Positions 12,677 to 50,834 of a stretch of DNA of 59,291 bases are shown in pieces. Position numbers and translations under genes: made by a program. Source of the DNA: an uncultured Gammaproteobacteria bacterium (GTDB lineage Bacteria; Patescibacteriota; Microgenomatia; Daviesbacterales; UBA10151). Location of the stretch: assembly GCA_964524895.1 (NCBI GenBank), contig CAZGFG010000004.1, positions 20,469 through 79,759 on the forward strand, written 5' to 3'. The notes beneath the pieces were generated by a model, which did no database searches, was not told the DNA's origin, and worked only from the letters and a program-made list of their open reading frames with translations. Position 1 is the first letter of the stretch; every line of letters begins with the position of its first letter.

Positions 12677-12988
12677 TTGTCGTTCCGAGTGAAACGAGGA
12701 ATCTCAAGATTGAAAAGCTATTGGGTCTATATTTTAGCCAGTAAAACTGGAATGCTCTATGTAGGAGTAACTAATAATTTAGAAAAAAGGATGTATGAAC
12801 ATAAGAACAAATTGATTTCAGGGTTTACTGCAAAATACCGTATAGACAGATTAATGTATTATCAGGAATTTAATTATATAGAACAGGCTATAGAGATGGA
12901 AAAGAGGATCAAGGGATGGACCAGAAAGAAGAAAACAGACTTAATAAAAACTATTAATCCTGATGTGAAAGATTTAGCAGAAGGTTAA
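12677..12988 (+). CDS. GIY-YIG nuclease (UPF0213/YhbQ-like); start may be TTG 12710
   Basis: YWVYIL...LYVGVTNNL.KR..EH, A...EK.IKGW.R.KK. Confidence 0.9.
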   Translation: MSFRVKRGISRLKSYWVYILASKTGMLYVGVTNNLEKRMYEHKNKLISGFTAKYRIDRLMYYQEFNYIEQAIEMEKRIKGWTRKKKTDLIKTINPDVKDLAEG

Positions 12989-13131: not shown

Positions 13132-13205
13132 GGGCGGATAGCTCAATTGGTTAGAGCATCAATCTTATACATTGAACGTTCCTGGTTCGAGTCCAGGTCC
13201 GCCCA
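13132..13205 (+). tRNA. tRNA-Ile (anticodon UAU)
   Basis: cloverleaf: GGGCGGA/TCCGCCC acceptor, TCAAT-CT TAT AC-ATTGA anticodon arm, TTCGAGT T-loop; extended -10 TGTTATAAT at 13114-13122. Confidence 0.93.
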
Positions 13206-13281
13206 CAGCAAATACATGATTTAATGTGATAAAAGATCGACCCACCCCTAGTGGTTTTTCAGGTTCAGGTCCCATACTAAT

Positions 13282-14566: not shown

Positions 14567-14832
14567 TTGCGGGGGTGGGAGTTGAACCCACTGCCTCAAG
14601 ATTATGCTCCTACCCTGATTACTCAAGGGGTTGGACTATATCATCACCCCGACATTAGTCGGGGGCCCGGCGTGTAGTCTCTACGGGGTCCTTCGACTAT
14701 GCTCAGGACTTCCCTCGGATATTGTCCTAAATGTTTAGGGTGTCTACCGATATAGCCAGGTTTGCTCCGACAATTACTCATCGGAGGGCCCACTTCTACT
14801 AGCCTTGTGTGCAACCGTTACACTTCCCCGCG
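14567..14832 (-). tRNA. initiator-type tRNA-Met (CAU) interrupted by a group I intron; exons 14801-14832 and 14567-14606
   Basis: spliced product CGCGGGG...CAAGG CT|CAT AA TCTTG...GTGGG TTCAACT CCCAC CCCCGCA A, with the C1:A72 mismatch typical of initiators. Confidence 0.9.
14607..14800 (-). ncRNA. group I self-splicing intron, 194 nt, IC3-like, inserted between U33 and C34
   Basis: P1 GGCU/GGCC with U.G at the splice site, P2 with GUAA loop, P3 CCUGGC/GCCGGG, R GUAGAGACUA, S GAUAUAGUCC, P8, P9 with GUAA loop, terminal G. Confidence 0.92.
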
Positions 14833-14844
14833 ATAACATTAGGT

Positions 14845-14908
14845 ATTCTATGCCCAAGTTATCTTTATGTCAAGCTTTCTTGACATTTAATAAATACTAT
14901 TGTAGTAT
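14845..14908. promoter_or_regulatory. back-to-back divergent sigma70 promoters
   Basis: minus strand TTGACA-N17-TAGAAT (14873-14845) for the tRNA; plus strand TTGACA-N17-TAGTAT (14880-14908) for the HTH gene. Confidence 0.8.
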
Positions 14909-14929: not shown

Positions 14930-15610
14930 ATGATTCGTAAATTCAAAGAACACCAAAAAGCTTTATTTCTAAGACAGAATGGTAAAAGCATTCGGCAAAT
15001 AGCAAAGTTACTCAAAATAAGCCCTAGCACTGCTAGCAAATGGTGTAAACATATTAAGCTATCTCCTAAACAACAAGAATTTTTATTAAATAGTGAATCT
15101 AGAACCTCTCATTTAAGACGCCTAGCAAAACAATCTCATAGGAATAAATTGTTGAGGGTTAAAGAGTTAACTAGTGAAGCTAAAGCTGAAATTAAGCATC
15201 TTAATAAAAACGAACTATTTTTAACCGGTTTAGCACTTTATTGGGCAGAGGGATTTAAAAGTTTGAAGGAAGGGAGAGTGGGTTTCTGTAACTCAGATCC
15301 TAAAATGATTAAGTTTTTTATTAAATGGCTTAAAAGATCTTTTGATATAAAGCCGGAAGATTTAATTTTAAGGGCAGAATTTAATGAGTCTCATGAGTAT
15401 CGTAAGGAAGAGATAGAAAAGTTTTGGTCAAAAACTACTAGGATTCCGAAAGAACAGTTTGAGAGGTCTTTTTACCACAAATCTATATGGTTGAAGAGAT
15501 ATGAGAATCCAGAAAATTACTATGGAGTGTTAAGGATAAGAGTGCGTAAAAGCAGCGAGTTGCTGACTAGAATTAGAGGATGGATTGACGGTCTTAGATA
15601 TGCAGCCTAA
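14930..15610 (+). CDS. HTH + single-motif LAGLIDADG-like protein
   Basis: N-terminal HTH (SIRQIAKLLKISPSTASKW), LTGLALYWAEG, FCNSDP.MI.FF, YGVLRIRV. Confidence 0.7.
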   Translation: MIRKFKEHQKALFLRQNGKSIRQIAKLLKISPSTASKWCKHIKLSPKQQEFLLNSESRTSHLRRLAKQSHRNKLLRVKELTSEAKAEIKHLNKNELFLTGLALYWAEGFKSLKEGRVGFCNSDPKMIKFFIKWLKRSFDIKPEDLILRAEFNESHEYRKEEIEKFWSKTTRIPKEQFERSFYHKSIWLKRYENPENYYGVLRIRVRKSSELLTRIRGWIDGLRYAA

Positions 15611-15731: not shown

Positions 15732-15995
15732 ATGATTACCCAACAAGCTCAAATAAAAATAAATCTTCCGCTAGCTCTTAAAGAATTTTTGGAAAGTAAG
15801 GCTGGTAAATTTGGTATGCCTTTAGCAGGGTACATTAAACATTTAATGCTTAAAGATGTTGAAAATATGGATTATCCTGCCTTTGTACTCTCTGACAAGT
15901 CTGAAAGAGCCTTAAAAAAAGCCTTGAAGGAAAAAGATAAAGCTGTCCTTATTAAAAACAAGGAAGAGTTAGATAAGTTCTTTAAGGATCTGTGA
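15732..15995 (+). CDS. antitoxin-like ribbon-helix-helix protein
   Basis: QIKINLP..LKEFL...A...G...YIKHL; overlaps the downstream toxin gene. Confidence 0.7.
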   Translation: MITQQAQIKINLPLALKEFLESKAGKFGMPLAGYIKHLMLKDVENMDYPAFVLSDKSERALKKALKEKDKAVLIKNKEELDKFFKDL

Positions 15996-16333
15996 AACCT
16001 CTCAAGTTTAGTCCTGATGTATATAAAAAACTAAAGGAAATTCAACTTAAGAACGTAACTTTACATAAAAGAATTCAGAAACAACTATATTTGTTCATAA
16101 ACAATCCTCGCCATAAATCACTCCGTCTTCATAAAATCGAAAGGCGTGACAGCTTAAGTATTTGGAGTATCTCCATCGATAAAAGCTATAGAATGCTATA
16201 TAAAGAAAACGAAGTGATTTACTTCTTTGGTATAGGAACTCATGACGAAGTTTATAAGCGAAGCTTGAAGGCATCGCCGAAAGCTGAACTTTCAGGCTCT
16301 GCCTATAAGCGAGCTAGAAAGGTTTCCTTATAG
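15992..16333 (+). CDS. RelE/YafQ-like type II toxin with a C-terminal extension
   Basis: SLRLHKI, WSISI..SYR, IGTHDEVY. Confidence 0.8.
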   Translation: MKPLKFSPDVYKKLKEIQLKNVTLHKRIQKQLYLFINNPRHKSLRLHKIERRDSLSIWSISIDKSYRMLYKENEVIYFFGIGTHDEVYKRSLKASPKAELSGSAYKRARKVSL

Positions 16334-16513: not shown

Positions 16514-16780
16514 GTGAATTTCTACTATGTTTATGTACTTCAAAGTCTGAAGCTAGATTGGATTTATGTAGGATCCACATCTGATCTTCGTCAAAGATTT
16601 AAAAGTCATAATAATGGAGAAAATTTATCTACTAAGGGATACAAACCGTTTAAATTGATTTTCTATGAAGCTTATTTAAGTAAGAAAGATGCCTTAAGAA
16701 GAGAAGAATATTTTAAAACCTCTAAAGGTAAAACTACTTTAAAAACTATGTTAAAAGAATATTTTTCTGGAAAATATTAA
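16514..16780 (+). CDS. GIY-YIG nuclease (second subfamily)
   Basis: YYVYVLQS..., YVGST.DL..R...HN.G, A..RE.YFK. Confidence 0.9.
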   Translation: MNFYYVYVLQSLKLDWIYVGSTSDLRQRFKSHNNGENLSTKGYKPFKLIFYEAYLSKKDALRREEYFKTSKGKTTLKTMLKEYFSGKY

Positions 16781-21685: not shown

Positions 21686-21756
21686 GGCAGTGTAGCTTAA
21701 CGGCAAAGCAGTGCCCTCATAAAGCACGGATGAAGGTTCGACTCCTTCCATTGCCA
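21686..21756 (+). tRNA. tRNA-Met (CAU), probably elongator
   Basis: GGCAGTG/CATTGCC acceptor, GTGCC-CT CAT AA-AGCAC arm (31:39 C.A mismatch), GAAGG-TTCGACT-CCTTC T arm. Confidence 0.88.
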
Positions 21757-21788
21757 CTAGAGATTAGAAAGCTGTAAAGGTTAACAAA

Positions 21789-32694: not shown

Positions 32695-34950
32695 ATGAAA
32701 CGCTTAGTTCTGGTAGACGGGAATGCTCTGCTGCATAGAGCTTATCATGCCACCCCACCTCTCACTACCTCCAAAGGAGAATTGGTTAACGCGGTGTATG
32801 GCTTTAGCTCTATGCTTTTGCGTTCTATTAATGAGCTGGCTCCTGATTTTATTGCTGTGGCCTGGGATAAAAAAGGGCCTACATTTCGCCACCAGGTTTT
32901 TACTCAATATAAAGCTACCCGTGGTCCTGCAGATGACGGGTTATCTACCCAATACAAACGGGTTTTTGAAGTGGTAGATACTTTAAACATCCCCGAATTT
33001 TCCCTAGCCGGTTATGAAGCTGATGATTTAATTGGAACACTGGCAAAGCAAGCAGTTGAGAAAGAAAAAAATCTGGAGGTAATAATACTGACAGGGGATA
33101 GGGATATCATGCAGACAATAGGTAAAAATGTTAAGGTTTTAATGCCTAAGAAAACTTTGCAGGATGTCGGGCTTTACGGAATAGAGGAATTTGTAGCTAG
33201 GTATGGTTTTGATCCGGTGAATTTAGTGGACTATAAGGCCCTAGCAGGGGATGCTTCAGACAACATTCCTGGTGTTTCTGGAATCGGGGATATTTCTGCT
33301 ACAAAATTGGTTCAGCAATTTGGCACGATTGAAAAAATTTACAACCCAAAAAATCTGAAAACTTTACCGGAAAGGACGCAAAAGCTTTTGGCAGAGGGGG
33401 GGGAGTCGGCGGTGATGAGCAAAAGTCTGGCTATGTTGGATTTAAATGCCCCTATCAAACTGGATTTGGTTGCCTGCAGAGTTCATGATTATAATCACGA
33501 GAAAGCGGTTGAATTATTCCAAGAGCTGGAGTTTAAAAGCTTGATCCCCAGGTTGCCTGGAGATGCTCGGGGTCCTGCCGGCTCGGTTTCCCAGCGTGCA
33601 TCCTCGATCGCTTCCGCTCCTGCGGCTACGCGCCGGGACCCCTCTTCGCCGTCACCCCTCGCCGGCTCAAACTTCGCCGGCCCAAATACTACTGATTTAG
33701 ACCTGGAAGTTACTCCTGTTTTGGAACAGATGAGTAGAAACGGAGTAATGGTAGATTTGAAGTTTTTGCAAAAAATGGGCAAGGATTTAAAGGCCAAGTT
33801 GCAAAAGTGTGAGCAGGAGATTTATCAAAAAGTTGGGCATGAGTTTAATATCAACAGCCCCAAACAGCTTTCCCAGATCCTTTTTGATGATTTAAAATTA
33901 CCAGTGGTCAGAAAAACCAAAACAGGCCGTTCAACAGATGAGGCAACCCTGCTGCAACTACATGATGCCCATCCGGTGGTACCGTTAATTTTGCAGTACC
34001 GCCAGATGTTTAAGTTAATCTCAACTTATATTGATGCTTTGCCCAAATTTGCAGATAAAAATAACCGGATTCATTCTACTTTTAATGTAGAAGGAGCTGC
34101 TACCGGCAGGCTCTCTTCGCAGGACCCGAACGTGCAAAATATCCCAATCAGAGGACAATTAGGATCGGAAATCAGAAAAGCTTTTATAGCTCCAAAAGGG
34201 AAGGTACTTTTGGCAGCCGATTATTCCCAAATTGAGCTTAGGATTTTGGCTCACTTATCCGGGGACCCCAATTTGGAAAAAGCGTTTAAAGAGGGGATAG
34301 ATATTCACGTTTTAACTGCCTCCAAGATTTTTAAGATACCGGTTGAAAAGATAAATAAACAGCAGCGGATGGTAGGTAAAACTATGAATTTTGCCACCCT
34401 TTACGGCCAGGGCCCGCATGCTCTTTCCCAGCAATTGGGTATTGATTATCAAACTGCCCGCCAATATATCAATGAATATTTTGAACAGTTTCCTAAAGTG
34501 CGACAGTGGATGGCTACTGTTTTGGAGCAGGGGTATCAAAAAGGATATGTAGAAACAATCTGGGGCAGGAAAAGATATATCCCGGAGCTGCAAGCTTCCA
34601 ACAGGATGCTGAAAGCATTTGGGGAACGGGCTGCGGTAAACCATCCTATTCAGGGGACCCAGGCGGATATGATCAAAAAAGCGATGATAGAGATAGATAA
34701 AGAACTAGAAACTAGGAATAAGAAATTAGGTAAGACCAAGCCTAGTTCTTCCAACCTAGCTCCTAGTTCCTGCAGCCTGATCTTGCAAGTTCATGATGAG
34801 CTTTTATTTGAATGTGACCCAAAACTTATTAAAGAAATAGGTAAAATGGTTGGTGAGAAAATGGAAAATGCTATCAAGCTTTCGGTGCCGGTGAAAGTGG
34901 ATTTAAAGGTTGGCAAAAATTGGGGCGAAATGGAGCCGCTTAAGGTATGA
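32695..34950 (+). CDS. polA: DNA polymerase I lacking the 3'-5' exonuclease domain
   Basis: LVDGNALLHRAYHA, GYEADD, ADYSQIELR, KTMNFATLYG, LQVHDEL. Confidence 0.96.
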   Translation: MKRLVLVDGNALLHRAYHATPPLTTSKGELVNAVYGFSSMLLRSINELAPDFIAVAWDKKGPTFRHQVFTQYKATRGPADDGLSTQYKRVFEVVDTLNIPEFSLAGYEADDLIGTLAKQAVEKEKNLEVIILTGDRDIMQTIGKNVKVLMPKKTLQDVGLYGIEEFVARYGFDPVNLVDYKALAGDASDNIPGVSGIGDISATKLVQQFGTIEKIYNPKNLKTLPERTQKLLAEGGESAVMSKSLAMLDLNAPIKLDLVACRVHDYNHEKAVELFQELEFKSLIPRLPGDARGPAGSVSQRASSIASAPAATRRDPSSPSPLAGSNFAGPNTTDLDLEVTPVLEQMSRNGVMVDLKFLQKMGKDLKAKLQKCEQEIYQKVGHEFNINSPKQLSQILFDDLKLPVVRKTKTGRSTDEATLLQLHDAHPVVPLILQYRQMFKLISTYIDALPKFADKNNRIHSTFNVEGAATGRLSSQDPNVQNIPIRGQLGSEIRKAFIAPKGKVLLAADYSQIELRILAHLSGDPNLEKAFKEGIDIHVLTASKIFKIPVEKINKQQRMVGKTMNFATLYGQGPHALSQQLGIDYQTARQYINEYFEQFPKVRQWMATVLEQGYQKGYVETIWGRKRYIPELQASNRMLKAFGERAAVNHPIQGTQADMIKKAMIEIDKELETRNKKLGKTKPSSSNLAPSSCSLILQVHDELLFECDPKLIKEIGKMVGEKMENAIKLSVPVKVDLKVGKNWGEMEPLKV
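33563..33683. repeat. GC-rich palindromic insertion in the polA linker
   Basis: GGGGTCC/GGACCCC (33569-33642) and GCCGGC/GCCGGC (33661-33681) hairpins; encodes low-complexity A/S/P sequence. Confidence 0.7.
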
Positions 34951-49094: not shown

Positions 49095-50834
49095 ATGATT
49101 TTTGAGGAGCTGACTGAATATTTTGAGAGGTTGGAAAAAACTTCCTCCAGGCTTTCTTTAATTGATATCTTAGCTGAACTTTTTTCCAAAGTAGATAAAA
49201 AGGAAGTAGCTAAGGTTTCTTATCTAATCCAAGGACGGGTAGCCCCTTTTTACGAACCTATCGAGATTGGGATGGCGGAAAAAAGTGTAGCGGCCTCAAT
49301 TGCGCGTGCTTATGGGGTAGAGCGTCCGGAAGTTTTAAAAATGTATGGAAAATTAGGAGATTTAGGGTTGGTTGCAATGCAGCTAAGTAGTAAAGGGAAA
49401 AGAATAAGAGGGAAGTTGCCTGTAACAGAAGTTTTTGAGGAATTGAGGAAAATTGCCTCTTTTTCCGGCAGCGGTACAGTGGAAAATAAAATTTCTGCCT
49501 TAACTAACTTATTGAGTAAATCCACTCCGGTAGAGGCAAAACATTTGGTCCGTATCCCCTTGGGGACTTCTCGGTTGGGGATAGGAGATCCGACTATTTT
49601 GGACGCTTTTGCCAAACTTAAACTGGGGGAAAAGTCCAAGAGAAAACTTTTGGAAGGAGCTTACAATAAGGTTTCCGATTTGGGGTTGATTGGAGAAACT
49701 TTGTGGTCAAGGGGATTGAAAGGAGTAGAGGGTTTGGATGTAGCGGTAGGCAGACCTTTGAGGTCAGAACTGTGTGAAAGGATCACTGACCCTAAACAAA
49801 TTCTGGAAAAATTTAGAGGGGAAGCCCATGTTCAATATAAATATGACGGATTCCGTGTCCAAATTCACAAAGATGGTAGTAAAGTTAGGCTTTTTTCTAG
49901 AAATTTAGAGGAAACTACCCCGATGTTTCCAGATATTGTTGAAGGAGTCAAAAAACAGATTAAGGCTAAATCAGCTATTTTAGATGCCGAGGCTTTGGCG
50001 TTTAATCCAGAGTCAGACGAGTTTCTGCCTTTTCAGGAGACCACCAAAAGAAGGAGGAAGTATGGGATCGAAGAGATGGCCAAAAAATTGCCTCTAAAGG
50101 CCTTTGTCTTCGATATTATGTATATAGACGGTAAATCCTTAATTGAGCTGCCTTTGGTTGAGCGTATGAAGCACTTGGCAAAAGCCATAGATGGAAGTGA
50201 GGTATTGATTGAGCAGCCGGGAGAGCTGGTAAAAAAAGCAGACAGGATCCAGCAGTTGTTTGATGATGCTTTAACTAAAGGGTTGGAGGGGTTAATTGTA
50301 AAAAGACCGGATTCTTTATATGAAGCAGGAGCCAGAAATTTTAATTGGATAAAATTAAAAAGGCATTCCTCCGGAGAACTGCAAGATACTGTAGATTGTG
50401 TGATTTTGGGTTATATTTATGGGCGGGGTAAAAGGGTATCGTTTGGTGCAGGAGCACTTTTGGTAGGAATCTATGACAGCGATAAAGATGAGTTTGTGAC
50501 TGTTTCTAAAATAGGCACAGGTTTATCGGATCAGGAGTGGAGGGAGATCCACAAAAGAGCAGATAAAATAAAAGTGGATAAGAAACCTGCCCGGGTTAAT
50601 TCTATTTTAGAACCCAGTGTGTGGATCAAACCGGAAATAGTGATTGAGGTTTTAGCAGACGAGATTACCAAATCTCCGGTTCATACTGCCGGTCGAAACG
50701 GGGAAGAGGTAGGTTATGCTTTACGGTTCCCTCGTTTAGTCCGTTTTAGAGAGTCCGACAAAAAACCGGAAGATGCCTCCACGGTTTCCGAACTAAAAAG
50801 AATGTACGATCAACAGTTTGGTAAGAGGTCTTGA
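49095..50834 (+). CDS. ATP-dependent DNA ligase (LigI/archaeal type with DBD)
   Basis: KYDGFR, ILDAE, FDIMY, EGLIVK, WIKLK, LRFPR. Confidence 0.96.
   Translation: MIFEELTEYFERLEKTSSRLSLIDILAELFSKVDKKEVAKVSYLIQGRVAPFYEPIEIGMAEKSVAASIARAYGVERPEVLKMYGKLGDLGLVAMQLSSKGKRIRGKLPVTEVFEELRKIASFSGSGTVENKISALTNLLSKSTPVEAKHLVRIPLGTSRLGIGDPTILDAFAKLKLGEKSKRKLLEGAYNKVSDLGLIGETLWSRGLKGVEGLDVAVGRPLRSELCERITDPKQILEKFRGEAHVQYKYDGFRVQIHKDGSKVRLFSRNLEETTPMFPDIVEGVKKQIKAKSAILDAEALAFNPESDEFLPFQETTKRRRKYGIEEMAKKLPLKAFVFDIMYIDGKSLIELPLVERMKHLAKAIDGSEVLIEQPGELVKKADRIQQLFDDALTKGLEGLIVKRPDSLYEAGARNFNWIKLKRHSSGELQDTVDCVILGYIYGRGKRVSFGAGALLVGIYDSDKDEFVTVSKIGTGLSDQEWREIHKRADKIKVDKKPARVNSILEPSVWIKPEIVIEVLADEITKSPVHTAGRNGEEVGYALRFPRLVRFRESDKKPEDASTVSELKRMYDQQFGKRS

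Follow-up and report, generated by a model that had tools for sequence, protein, structure and literature searches.

A predicted 194-nt group I intron in the initiator-type tRNA gene of a Patescibacteria genome, and a divergent gene that is its possible partner

The DNA analysed here is a segment of 59,291 nt, referred to throughout as the window, from contig CAZGFG010000004.1 of GenBank assembly GCA_964524895.1 (positions 20,469 to 79,759 of the forward strand), which is filed under an uncultured Gammaproteobacteria bacterium. Its subject is a tRNA gene on the minus strand, at 14567-14832, which is split in the anticodon loop by a 194-nt intron, the insertion point lying between U33 and C34. 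An earlier reading of the same DNA, the first-pass annotation, had given these coordinates correctly, with the strand left unstated. The parts of the gene, which appears to encode the initiator tRNA (tRNA-fMet), and its promoter are arranged as follows.

14832..14801, minus strand: exon 1 of the tRNA-fMet gene (32 nt), tRNA positions 1-33 as placed by ARAGORN after splicing and colinear with intronless genes; it holds the acceptor 5′ strand, the D arm, the anticodon-stem 5′ strand, C32 and U33
14804..14801, minus strand: GGCU, the exon strand of paired region P1, at the 3′ terminus of exon 1
14800..14607, minus strand: predicted group I intron (194 nt), from the Rfam model RF00028, a family covariance model termed R1 and alignment to intronless orthologues
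14606..14567, minus strand: exon 2 of the tRNA-fMet gene, from C34, A35 and U36 to the discriminator base A73; CCA is not encoded
14606..14604, minus strand: CAU, the exon strand of P10
14845..14873, minus strand: predicted sigma-70-like promoter, TTGACA-17 nt-TAGAAT, matching the consensus at 11 of 12 positions and ending 12 nt before tRNA position 1

When the gene was spliced in silico by removal of the 194 nt at 14607-14800, the 72-nt product was called by ARAGORN as tRNA-Met(CAT) with a C1:A72 mismatch, in agreement with the first-pass annotation, in which this excision was said to restore a tRNA with a CAU anticodon and C1:A72. The predicted ligated exon junction is GGCU-CAUAA or, in a longer spanning form, AAGGCU-CAUAAUCUUGAGG. 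The unspliced gene was not called by ARAGORN, intron mode included, and the interrupted gene in the window was not matched by the Rfam tRNA model, bearing out the expectation that standard tRNA finders would miss it; the two methods together found only two other tRNAs in the window, Ile-UAU at 13132-13206 and Met-CAU at 21686-21757. It had also been stated that the intron contains no open reading frame (ORF), and those overlapping it are indeed 56 aa or shorter, none of them credible.

Uninterrupted forms of the gene were sought in metagenomes with a pattern comprising an AGTGTA...GCAC D arm and an AGGCU-CAUAAUCU loop, which returned at least 120 loci (loci are designated here by L numbers); this count and those given below for intron-bearing relatives are lower bounds, from which intron frequencies are not derivable. 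The spliced sequence of the window is colinear with the intronless gene of L166 and identical to it at 69 of 72 positions, one of the differences being a compensated pair in the T stem. The spliced relatives from L071, L072 and L034 match the intronless genes of L142, L233 and L215 at 100% identity. In four intronless loci (L220, L150, L166 and L184) the XerC(-)/DivIC(+)/tRNA(-) neighbourhood of the window is retained, and alignment of the window with these leaves one clean block of 194 nt. Since the difference at syntenic loci is a single block, the junction is placed exactly and the intron is optional, being present or absent at orthologous loci. The same match to intronless genes upholds the insertion between U33 and C34 and the junction given in the first-pass annotation.

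Relatives of the intron were collected by scanning one genome per species for the 3′ element of P7 followed, 30-60 nt further on, by an fMet-type T arm and acceptor end. At least 120 loci were obtained, about half of them intronless chance matches. After splicing in silico, a tRNA-Met(CAT) was accepted by ARAGORN at no fewer than 55 loci (species genomes), and 23 members make up the core family to which the window belongs. The elements located in the window intron are listed below.

14787..14793, minus strand: internal guide sequence GUG-GGCC, in which GGCC (14790..14787) pairs with the exon GGCU to form P1
14793..14791, minus strand: guide GUG of P10, pairing with CAU of the 3′ exon
14765..14786, minus strand: P2 hairpin of 9 bp with a GUAA tetraloop at 14777..14774 (minimum-free-energy fold, covariation)
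14755..14760, minus strand: 5′ strand of P3, CCUGGC, pairing with 14671..14666 (99.3% of cells paired)
14666..14671, minus strand: 3′ strand of P3, GCCGGG (pair counts)
14685..14750, minus strand: P4-P5-P6 domain (R1 alignment, pair counts, fold)
14750..14747 with 14718..14715, minus strand: P4, UCGG/CCGA
14739..14735 with 14730..14726, minus strand: P5, CCUAA/UUAGG
14714..14705 with 14692..14685, minus strand: P6, GGG..GUCCU/AGGAC-CCC
14675..14681, minus strand: 5′ strand of P7, G-A(bulge)-GACUA, inside the conserved GUAGAGACUACACG (aligned to the Rfam core)
14647..14664, minus strand: P8 hairpin, CCCCGAC-UAAU-GUCGGGG (pair counts, fold)
14633..14646, minus strand: joining segment J8/7 (UGAUGAUA) and the 3′ strand of P7, UAGUCC (14638..14633), an invariant GA.AUAGUCC block
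14607..14628, minus strand: P9 hairpin, CCUUGA-GUAA-UCAGGG (14628..14613), and 3′ tail (covariation)
14607, minus strand: terminal G (omega G), preceding CAUAA

It is apparent that the elements named in the first-pass annotation, i.e. P1 with its U.G pair, P3, P7, P8, GNRA loops on P2 and P9 and a terminal G, are all present. That annotation had also proposed a search with group I covariance models. RF00028 matches 14891..14612 (minus strand) with 52.9 bits, above its gathering score of 50 (E 1.3e-10), and relatives score 59-81 bits; in the alignment of the window to RF00028 the core is placed correctly and the P1/P2 part is misplaced onto a hairpin of the promoter region. Model R1, which was built from 16 relatives with the window left out, finds one match in the 59 kb, at 14808..14599 (minus strand), over its full length and with 152.9 bits (E ~7e-50). 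By this score the window ranks 21st of the 23 core members, which range from 145 to 202 bits.

Base pairs were counted on the alignment of the 23 members, against a structure set by hand in which the P3/P7 pseudoknot and P10 are represented. Standard pairs occupy 95.4% of cells, none of 500 shuffles reached any of the observed pairing measures, and sliding the 3′ partners by 1-3 columns reduced pairing to 33-45%. Compensatory changes were seen in 25 of the 49 pairs, in an alignment that was fitted to the model and is thus biased toward the structure; a plain MAFFT alignment gave 21 covarying pairs. Among the 23 members, covariation is found in P2 (9 of 9 pairs), P3 (4 of 6), P9 (5 of 6), the base of P8 (3 of 3) and also in P5. 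P1 (GGCU/GGCC) and the six pairs of P7 are fully formed and never vary in all 23, as is true of the U.G at the 5′ splice site; GUAGAGACUA and AUAGUCC (the P7 and R/S elements) are likewise invariant in 23 of 23, and the terminal G before CAUAA is kept in every member. P10 joins CAU with (A/G)UG, its two inner pairs being present in all 23 members and the outer pair in 15. The window intron folded as a single sequence (-69.3 kcal/mol, z = -3.1) recovers P2-P6, P8 and P9. A GUAG/CUAC hairpin returned by RNAalifold was rejected as false, the P3/P7 pseudoknot not being drawable by that program, and was replaced by P7, with its pairs counted explicitly.

P7 is expected to be the guanosine-binding helix, by analogy with established group I biology. 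The intron is compact, with one P2, neither P5abc nor P7.1 or P7.2, and GNRA loops on P2 and P9, an architecture that fits an IC3-like intron of the Azoarcus type and makes subgroup IC3 a possible assignment. The window intron has GUAA in both L2 and L9. Among its relatives, GAAA in L9 goes with a P5 of the CCUAA...UAUGG type and GUAA in L9 with one of the CC:GG type; these states track two clades, so they may reflect a single evolutionary event.

The identity of the tRNA was considered next to that of the intron. Marks of an initiator are the C1:A72 mismatch, an acceptor stem of CGCGGGG/CCCCGCA-A (with G2-C71, C3-G70 and G4-C69) and the CAU anticodon, and the window contains a separate tRNA-Met(CAU) with G1-C72 as well as a tRNA-Ile(UAU). 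The anticodon stem reads C-G, A-U, A-U, G-C, G.U, so that G30-C40 is the only one of the three canonical G-C pairs; the pair at 11:24 is U:A instead of A11:U24, and position 8 is A. The designation as initiator made in the first-pass annotation therefore stands as regards C1:A72, the fMet-type acceptor stem and CAU, and does not hold for the three anticodon-stem G-C pairs and A11:U24. The missing marks would fit an elongator tRNA-Met or a lysidine-modified tRNA-Ile2, but C1:A72 with the acceptor stem above is of the bacterial fMet type, the other two roles are filled by the G1-C72 tRNA-Met(CAU) and the tRNA-Ile(UAU), and the relatives and no fewer than 115 intronless genes of the lineage have the same atypical stem. 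An elongator or Ile2 identity is accordingly considered very improbable. The atypical traits, being common to intronless genes too, are features of the lineage and not signs of decay. Together the three genes cover AUA, AUG in elongation and initiation, so that a lysidine tRNA would be unneeded. Among the relatives, position 8 is A or U and position 1 is C, U or A. The tRNA-Ile(UAU) gene (13132-13206) and the elongator-type tRNA-Met(CAU) gene (21686-21757) both lie on the plus strand, the latter with a C31:A39 mismatch.

From sequence comparison, then, the element is very probably a working group I intron in an initiator-type tRNA, its catalytic activity being predicted from its structure. Several observations weigh against this conclusion. 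The RF00028 score barely exceeds the cut-off and the 5′ end was misplaced by Rfam; the R1 score lies in the lower part of the family range; P1 is only 4 bp long, and intron position 1 is an A, giving an A.G mismatch at a position where a C able to pair stands in most relatives; the tRNA is without two of the classical initiator marks; and a second, intronless initiator gene may exist beyond the 59-kb window.

Some of these observations are what would be seen if the element were a decaying remnant that no longer splices, the tRNA gene being dead and its role served by another initiator tRNA gene elsewhere. The visible genome is 59 kb, the window stands near the bottom of the R1 scores, and there are an extra U in the region of the P4 3′ strand and the A at intron position 1. 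Every helix and all of the invariant core blocks are intact, however, the exons are identical at 69 of 72 positions to functional-looking intronless genes with the T-stem difference compensated, a near-consensus promoter is retained, and no other initiator-type tRNA was found in the window with ARAGORN, Rfam or R1. Decay is thus extremely unlikely.

For a functional group I intron, the following pathway is proposed. Transcription would start at the promoter of the gene itself, and the intron would fold into P1-P9, the GUAA loops L2 and L9 most likely docking into P8 and P5, respectively, as in the Azoarcus intron. The guide GGCC would pair with the exon end GGCU, putting U33 in the U.G wobble, and free guanosine held in P7 would attack after U33. 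The adjoining guide GUG would then pair with CAU of exon 2 to form P10, the terminal G at 14607 would enter the same pocket, and U33 would attack after 14607. Ligation of GGCU to CAUAA would yield a normal anticodon loop.

The first-pass annotation had described the intron as unusually compact, which is true in comparison with classical model introns only; within its own family, where lengths range from 183 to 266 nt, 194 nt is typical, and 8 of 23 relatives are shorter (183, 184, 184, 186, 188, 189, 189 and 193 nt). The window intron is unexceptional within this family of very small introns, which is large and has hardly been described. With regard to insertion site, the loci with an accepted tRNA comprise at least 32 at U33/C34, the site used in the window, and at least 23 at U36/A37, the latter mostly carrying Saccharibacteria and Parcubacteria labels. 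The family of the window was seen in Daviesbacteria, Woesebacteria, Shapirobacteria, Chisholmbacteria and unnamed Microgenomates, and also in several third-party metagenome-assembled genomes (MAGs) that are labelled Gammaproteobacteria or Pseudomonadales and whose genes look like those of Microgenomates.

Other introns were encountered in the course of these scans. Members of the U36/A37 class (e.g. L005, L010, L013, L015, L018, L021 and L032) have the guide sequence GUG, and a Kaiserbacteria-type group at U33/C34 (L084, L106 and L079) has an Azoarcus-like core. Additional group I introns lie near tRNA-fMet loci in L080 (1234-1478, plus strand), L092 (263-514, minus strand) and L088 (5517-5763, plus strand); by eye, these split tRNA-Asp(GUC) genes after U35. 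In L028 (at about 1600-1850), L073 and L100, which are MAGs labelled Mollicutes or Clostridia, the tRNA-fMet gene contains a different, longer group I intron, and that of L028 encloses an HNH-like reading frame.

As to the host, proteins of the window resembling XerC, VirD4, DivIC, SucC/D and tryptophanyl-tRNA synthetase (TrpRS) are 64-84% identical to, and syntenic with, those at loci of Candidatus Daviesbacteria MAGs, and the host is therefore Daviesbacteria-like (Microgenomates, within the Patescibacteria, or candidate phyla radiation). A phage origin of the window was considered and rejected, there being no match in the phage collection searched and the genes including cellular housekeeping functions; genes for FtsH, PolA, CarB, TrpRS, TrxB, SucC, IspH, DivIC and an XerC-type protein are among those present. 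The 751-aa PolA (32695-34950, plus strand) has 5′-3′ exonuclease and polymerase domains, and no 3′-5′ exonuclease domain was detected in it; an ATP-dependent DNA ligase of the archaeal/eukaryotic type is encoded at 49095-50834 (plus strand). Proteins identical to ones encoded in the window are present in the sequencing runs SRR12113385, SRR12113383 and SRR4343435. The MAGs labelled Gammaproteobacteria or Pseudomonadales are those of L007, L009, L014, L017, L023, L033, L034, L040, L085 and L099, including a 615-kb 'chromosome'; their labels look wrong because Microgenomates-type tRNA-fMet introns and neighbour genes are present in them.

One protein-coding gene stands next to the interrupted tRNA gene, facing away from it:

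14930..15610, plus strand: gene for a 226-aa protein with an N-terminal helix-turn-helix (HTH; Pfam HTH_23), 98 nt from the tRNA gene and divergent from it

Back-to-back promoter-like sites occupy 14845-14908 and have in common a palindromic TGTCAAG...CTTGACA hairpin, the site directed toward the tRNA gene reading TTGACA-17-TAGAAT (minus strand) and that directed toward the HTH gene TTGACA-17-TAGTAT (plus strand). The protein is one of a family of 263 or more 'hypothetical' proteins of Patescibacteria, in whose C-terminal domain the motif LFLTGLALYWAEGFK...GFCNSDP is invariant. LFLTGLALYWAEGFK resembles the LAGLIDADG motif, and no Pfam LAGLIDADG model was matched even at E <= 10. Searches against NCBIfam and Pfam gave only N-terminal matches of HTH/transposase type and no known nuclease family, and a profile of the protein had no match among PDB sequences. 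The structure predicted for the protein has a predicted local distance difference test (pLDDT) score of 86.5 over its full length and 92.2 over the C-terminal domain. When folds were compared with PDB and with viral models, no match reached E <= 0.001. With the model of the C-terminal domain, the LAGLIDADG enzyme I-DmoI recurs (probability 0.80-0.90, template modelling score 0.40-0.45, root-mean-square deviation 2.8-5 Å) at E values of only 0.2-0.4, and the strand order of the model, set against the LAGLIDADG alpha-beta-beta-alpha-beta-beta-alpha fold, includes an extra helix. The resemblance to I-DmoI, which comes from a structural model, is to be regarded as a lead only.

The association of this gene with the intron was examined at loci for which 900 nt or more of upstream sequence was available. 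Where present, the homologue lies 56-287 nt upstream of the tRNA gene and is always divergent. It was found at 19 of 54 intron-bearing loci (both insertion sites) and at 2 of 76 intronless loci, sets that were drawn from two different collections, which gives a Fisher p of 6e-7 with relatedness ignored; for the core family taken separately, the homologue was found at 9 of 23 loci, against 2 of 76 (p = 2e-5, relatedness again ignored). As an independent check, five loci were gathered by way of family proteins alone; in all five, the tRNA-fMet gene contains an intron of the R1 family (187-237 nt), at a distance of 92-119 nt from the ORF. Two loci with identical tRNA exons and the same flanking genes, L247 and L220, are exactly two insertions apart: an intron of 200 nt, and a block, about 1 kb long and beginning about 12 nt upstream of the tRNA, in which the HTH ORF lies. 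Small GIY-YIG ORFs of 103 and 88 aa (12677-12988 and 16514-16780) flank the tRNA region of the window, where there is also a weak ParE-like ORF (15992-16333), all three on the plus strand; in L244, L246 and L247, similar GIY-YIG ORFs directly adjoin the HTH gene. They were rejected as a general nuclease partner, being adjacent in 3 of about 30 loci and equally common at intronless ones.

The co-occurrence of gene and intron is open to more than one reading. The intron could be a genuine group I intron that depends in the cell on a protein helper, either the 226-aa neighbour acting as a maturase or a general RNA chaperone. P1 is very short, the periphery is scant beyond the two tetraloop contacts, the neighbour gene co-occurs with the intron, and its C-terminal domain weakly resembles I-DmoI; LAGLIDADG proteins can act as maturases. 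On the other hand, the Azoarcus intron, which is similarly small, is self-splicing, and the neighbour gene is not generally required because about two-thirds of intron-bearing loci are without a copy beside the tRNA. Dependence on a helper is judged unlikely.

A link of another kind would be collaborative homing. The neighbour gene may encode a free-standing endonuclease that cuts the uninterrupted tRNA-fMet gene, the intron shielding its own copy, and the layout observed is the one characteristic of such systems, with an optional free-standing gene beside an intron-bearing target and the two co-occurring. On the pattern of the loci, it is suggested, tentatively and at rather less than even odds, that intron and HTH gene spread or persist as a pair of this kind. 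A fuller version, put forward more tentatively still, is that such a pair resides here in a cellular genome: a free-standing, very divergent and possibly LAGLIDADG-derived endonuclease would cut the anticodon-loop DNA of uninterrupted initiator tRNA genes, minimal ORF-less introns at U33/C34 or at U36/A37 would each destroy its target, and the two elements would have swept jointly through the initiator tRNA genes of Patescibacteria. If so, the sole initiator tRNA of many ultra-small bacteria would depend on a ribozyme of 183-200 nt. Observations made above, that the protein matches no known nuclease family by sequence, that no fold match reached E <= 0.001 and that the counts come from different collections with relatedness ignored, weigh against such mobility, as does the presence of the gene at three intronless loci (L022, L190 and L227).

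Those three loci, together with counts that ignore phylogeny, HTH/transposase-type matches confined to the N terminus and the lack of a confirmed nuclease fold, can be accommodated if the link reflects shared ancestry or local synteny. The 226-aa protein would then be an ordinary DNA-binding regulator or a remnant of a transposase, and the intron would be inherited vertically and occasionally lost precisely. This explanation does not sit easily with a link that spans two unrelated insertion sites and several classes of Patescibacteria, with the intron at 5 of 5 loci reached through the protein, or with the difference between L247 and L220, where both elements change at once against identical exons. 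It is nevertheless quite plausible, with a probability approaching one half.

For a group I intron of the kind described, whether or not it is mobile, several consequences may be noted. As tRNA finders miss the gene and Rfam mis-bounds or misses the introns, many Patescibacteria genomes will appear to be without an initiator tRNA. The family is a source of dozens of naturally occurring group I introns that covary and, at 183-200 nt, are no larger than the Azoarcus intron, the classical minimal model, and the natural variation of GNRA loop and receptor types between its clades should be of use in folding studies, engineered splicing and RNA circularisation. With alleles that have and lack the intron, two insertion sites and a co-occurring gene, the mobility of an ORF-less intron becomes directly testable in a cellular lineage.

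Bacterial tRNA anticodon loops have long been known to host group I introns. The most similar host gene in a known system is that of cyanobacteria, where a tRNA-fMet intron was described from Synechocystis PCC 6803, Dermocarpa and Scytonema (Biniszkiewicz et al. 1994, as cited in PMC1995217 and PMC5733544). In Synechocystis the intron measures 655 nt and encodes the PD-(D/E)XK endonuclease I-Ssp6803I (PMC1995217; PMC3984707). The present intron likewise is of group I, is hosted by an initiator tRNA, lies in the anticodon loop and has a sporadic distribution that suggests gain and loss. It differs from that of Synechocystis in residing in Patescibacteria, in its length of 194 nt and in having no ORF, so that any endonuclease would be free-standing next door.

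In structure the closest parallel is the Azoarcus intron, with which the window intron shares small size, the absence of an ORF, a tRNA with a CAU anticodon, the set P1-P9 and GNRA loops on P2 and P9 facing P8 and P5. The core element GUAGAGACUA..ACG is nearly identical to its Azoarcus counterpart. The Azoarcus intron is 205 nt long and inserted after U36, the same site as that of the U36/A37 class of Saccharibacteria and Parcubacteria loci. In the window, by contrast, insertion is after U33, the loops are GUAA and not GAAA, the length is 194 nt and the G+C content is lower (51%). The loop and receptor pattern of the family is in keeping with the docking of L9 on P5 and of L2 on P8 that has been reported for Azoarcus (PMC2813881).

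A third comparison is with the group I intron found between U34 and A35 of another tRNA, which also lies in an anticodon loop, lacks an ORF and uses the 5′ strand of the anticodon stem in P1. That intron is about 250 nt long, and an ancient, largely vertical inheritance has been proposed for it. In addition to the different tRNA and insertion point, the family of the window is set apart by being present or absent among near-identical alleles.

With respect to the neighbour gene, the arrangement recalls F-CphI beside the intron-bearing psbA gene of cyanophage S-PM2, for which, according to the account in PMC6083498, cleavage and protection were shown experimentally (Zeng, Bonocora & Shub 2009). 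Both cases have an ORF-less intron in a conserved target and an optional, free-standing adjacent gene, present or absent together; here the host is cellular, the target is a tRNA gene and the putative partner is known from its sequence and a weak fold match. The searchable literature on Patescibacteria covers introns of rRNA, and in it the hindering of detection by tRNA group I introns is a passing remark (PMC8172020). Given a known kind of intron and this scant record for Patescibacteria, the finding is therefore a large new clade of a known kind, and novelty in kind could lie with the free-standing gene that may be its partner.

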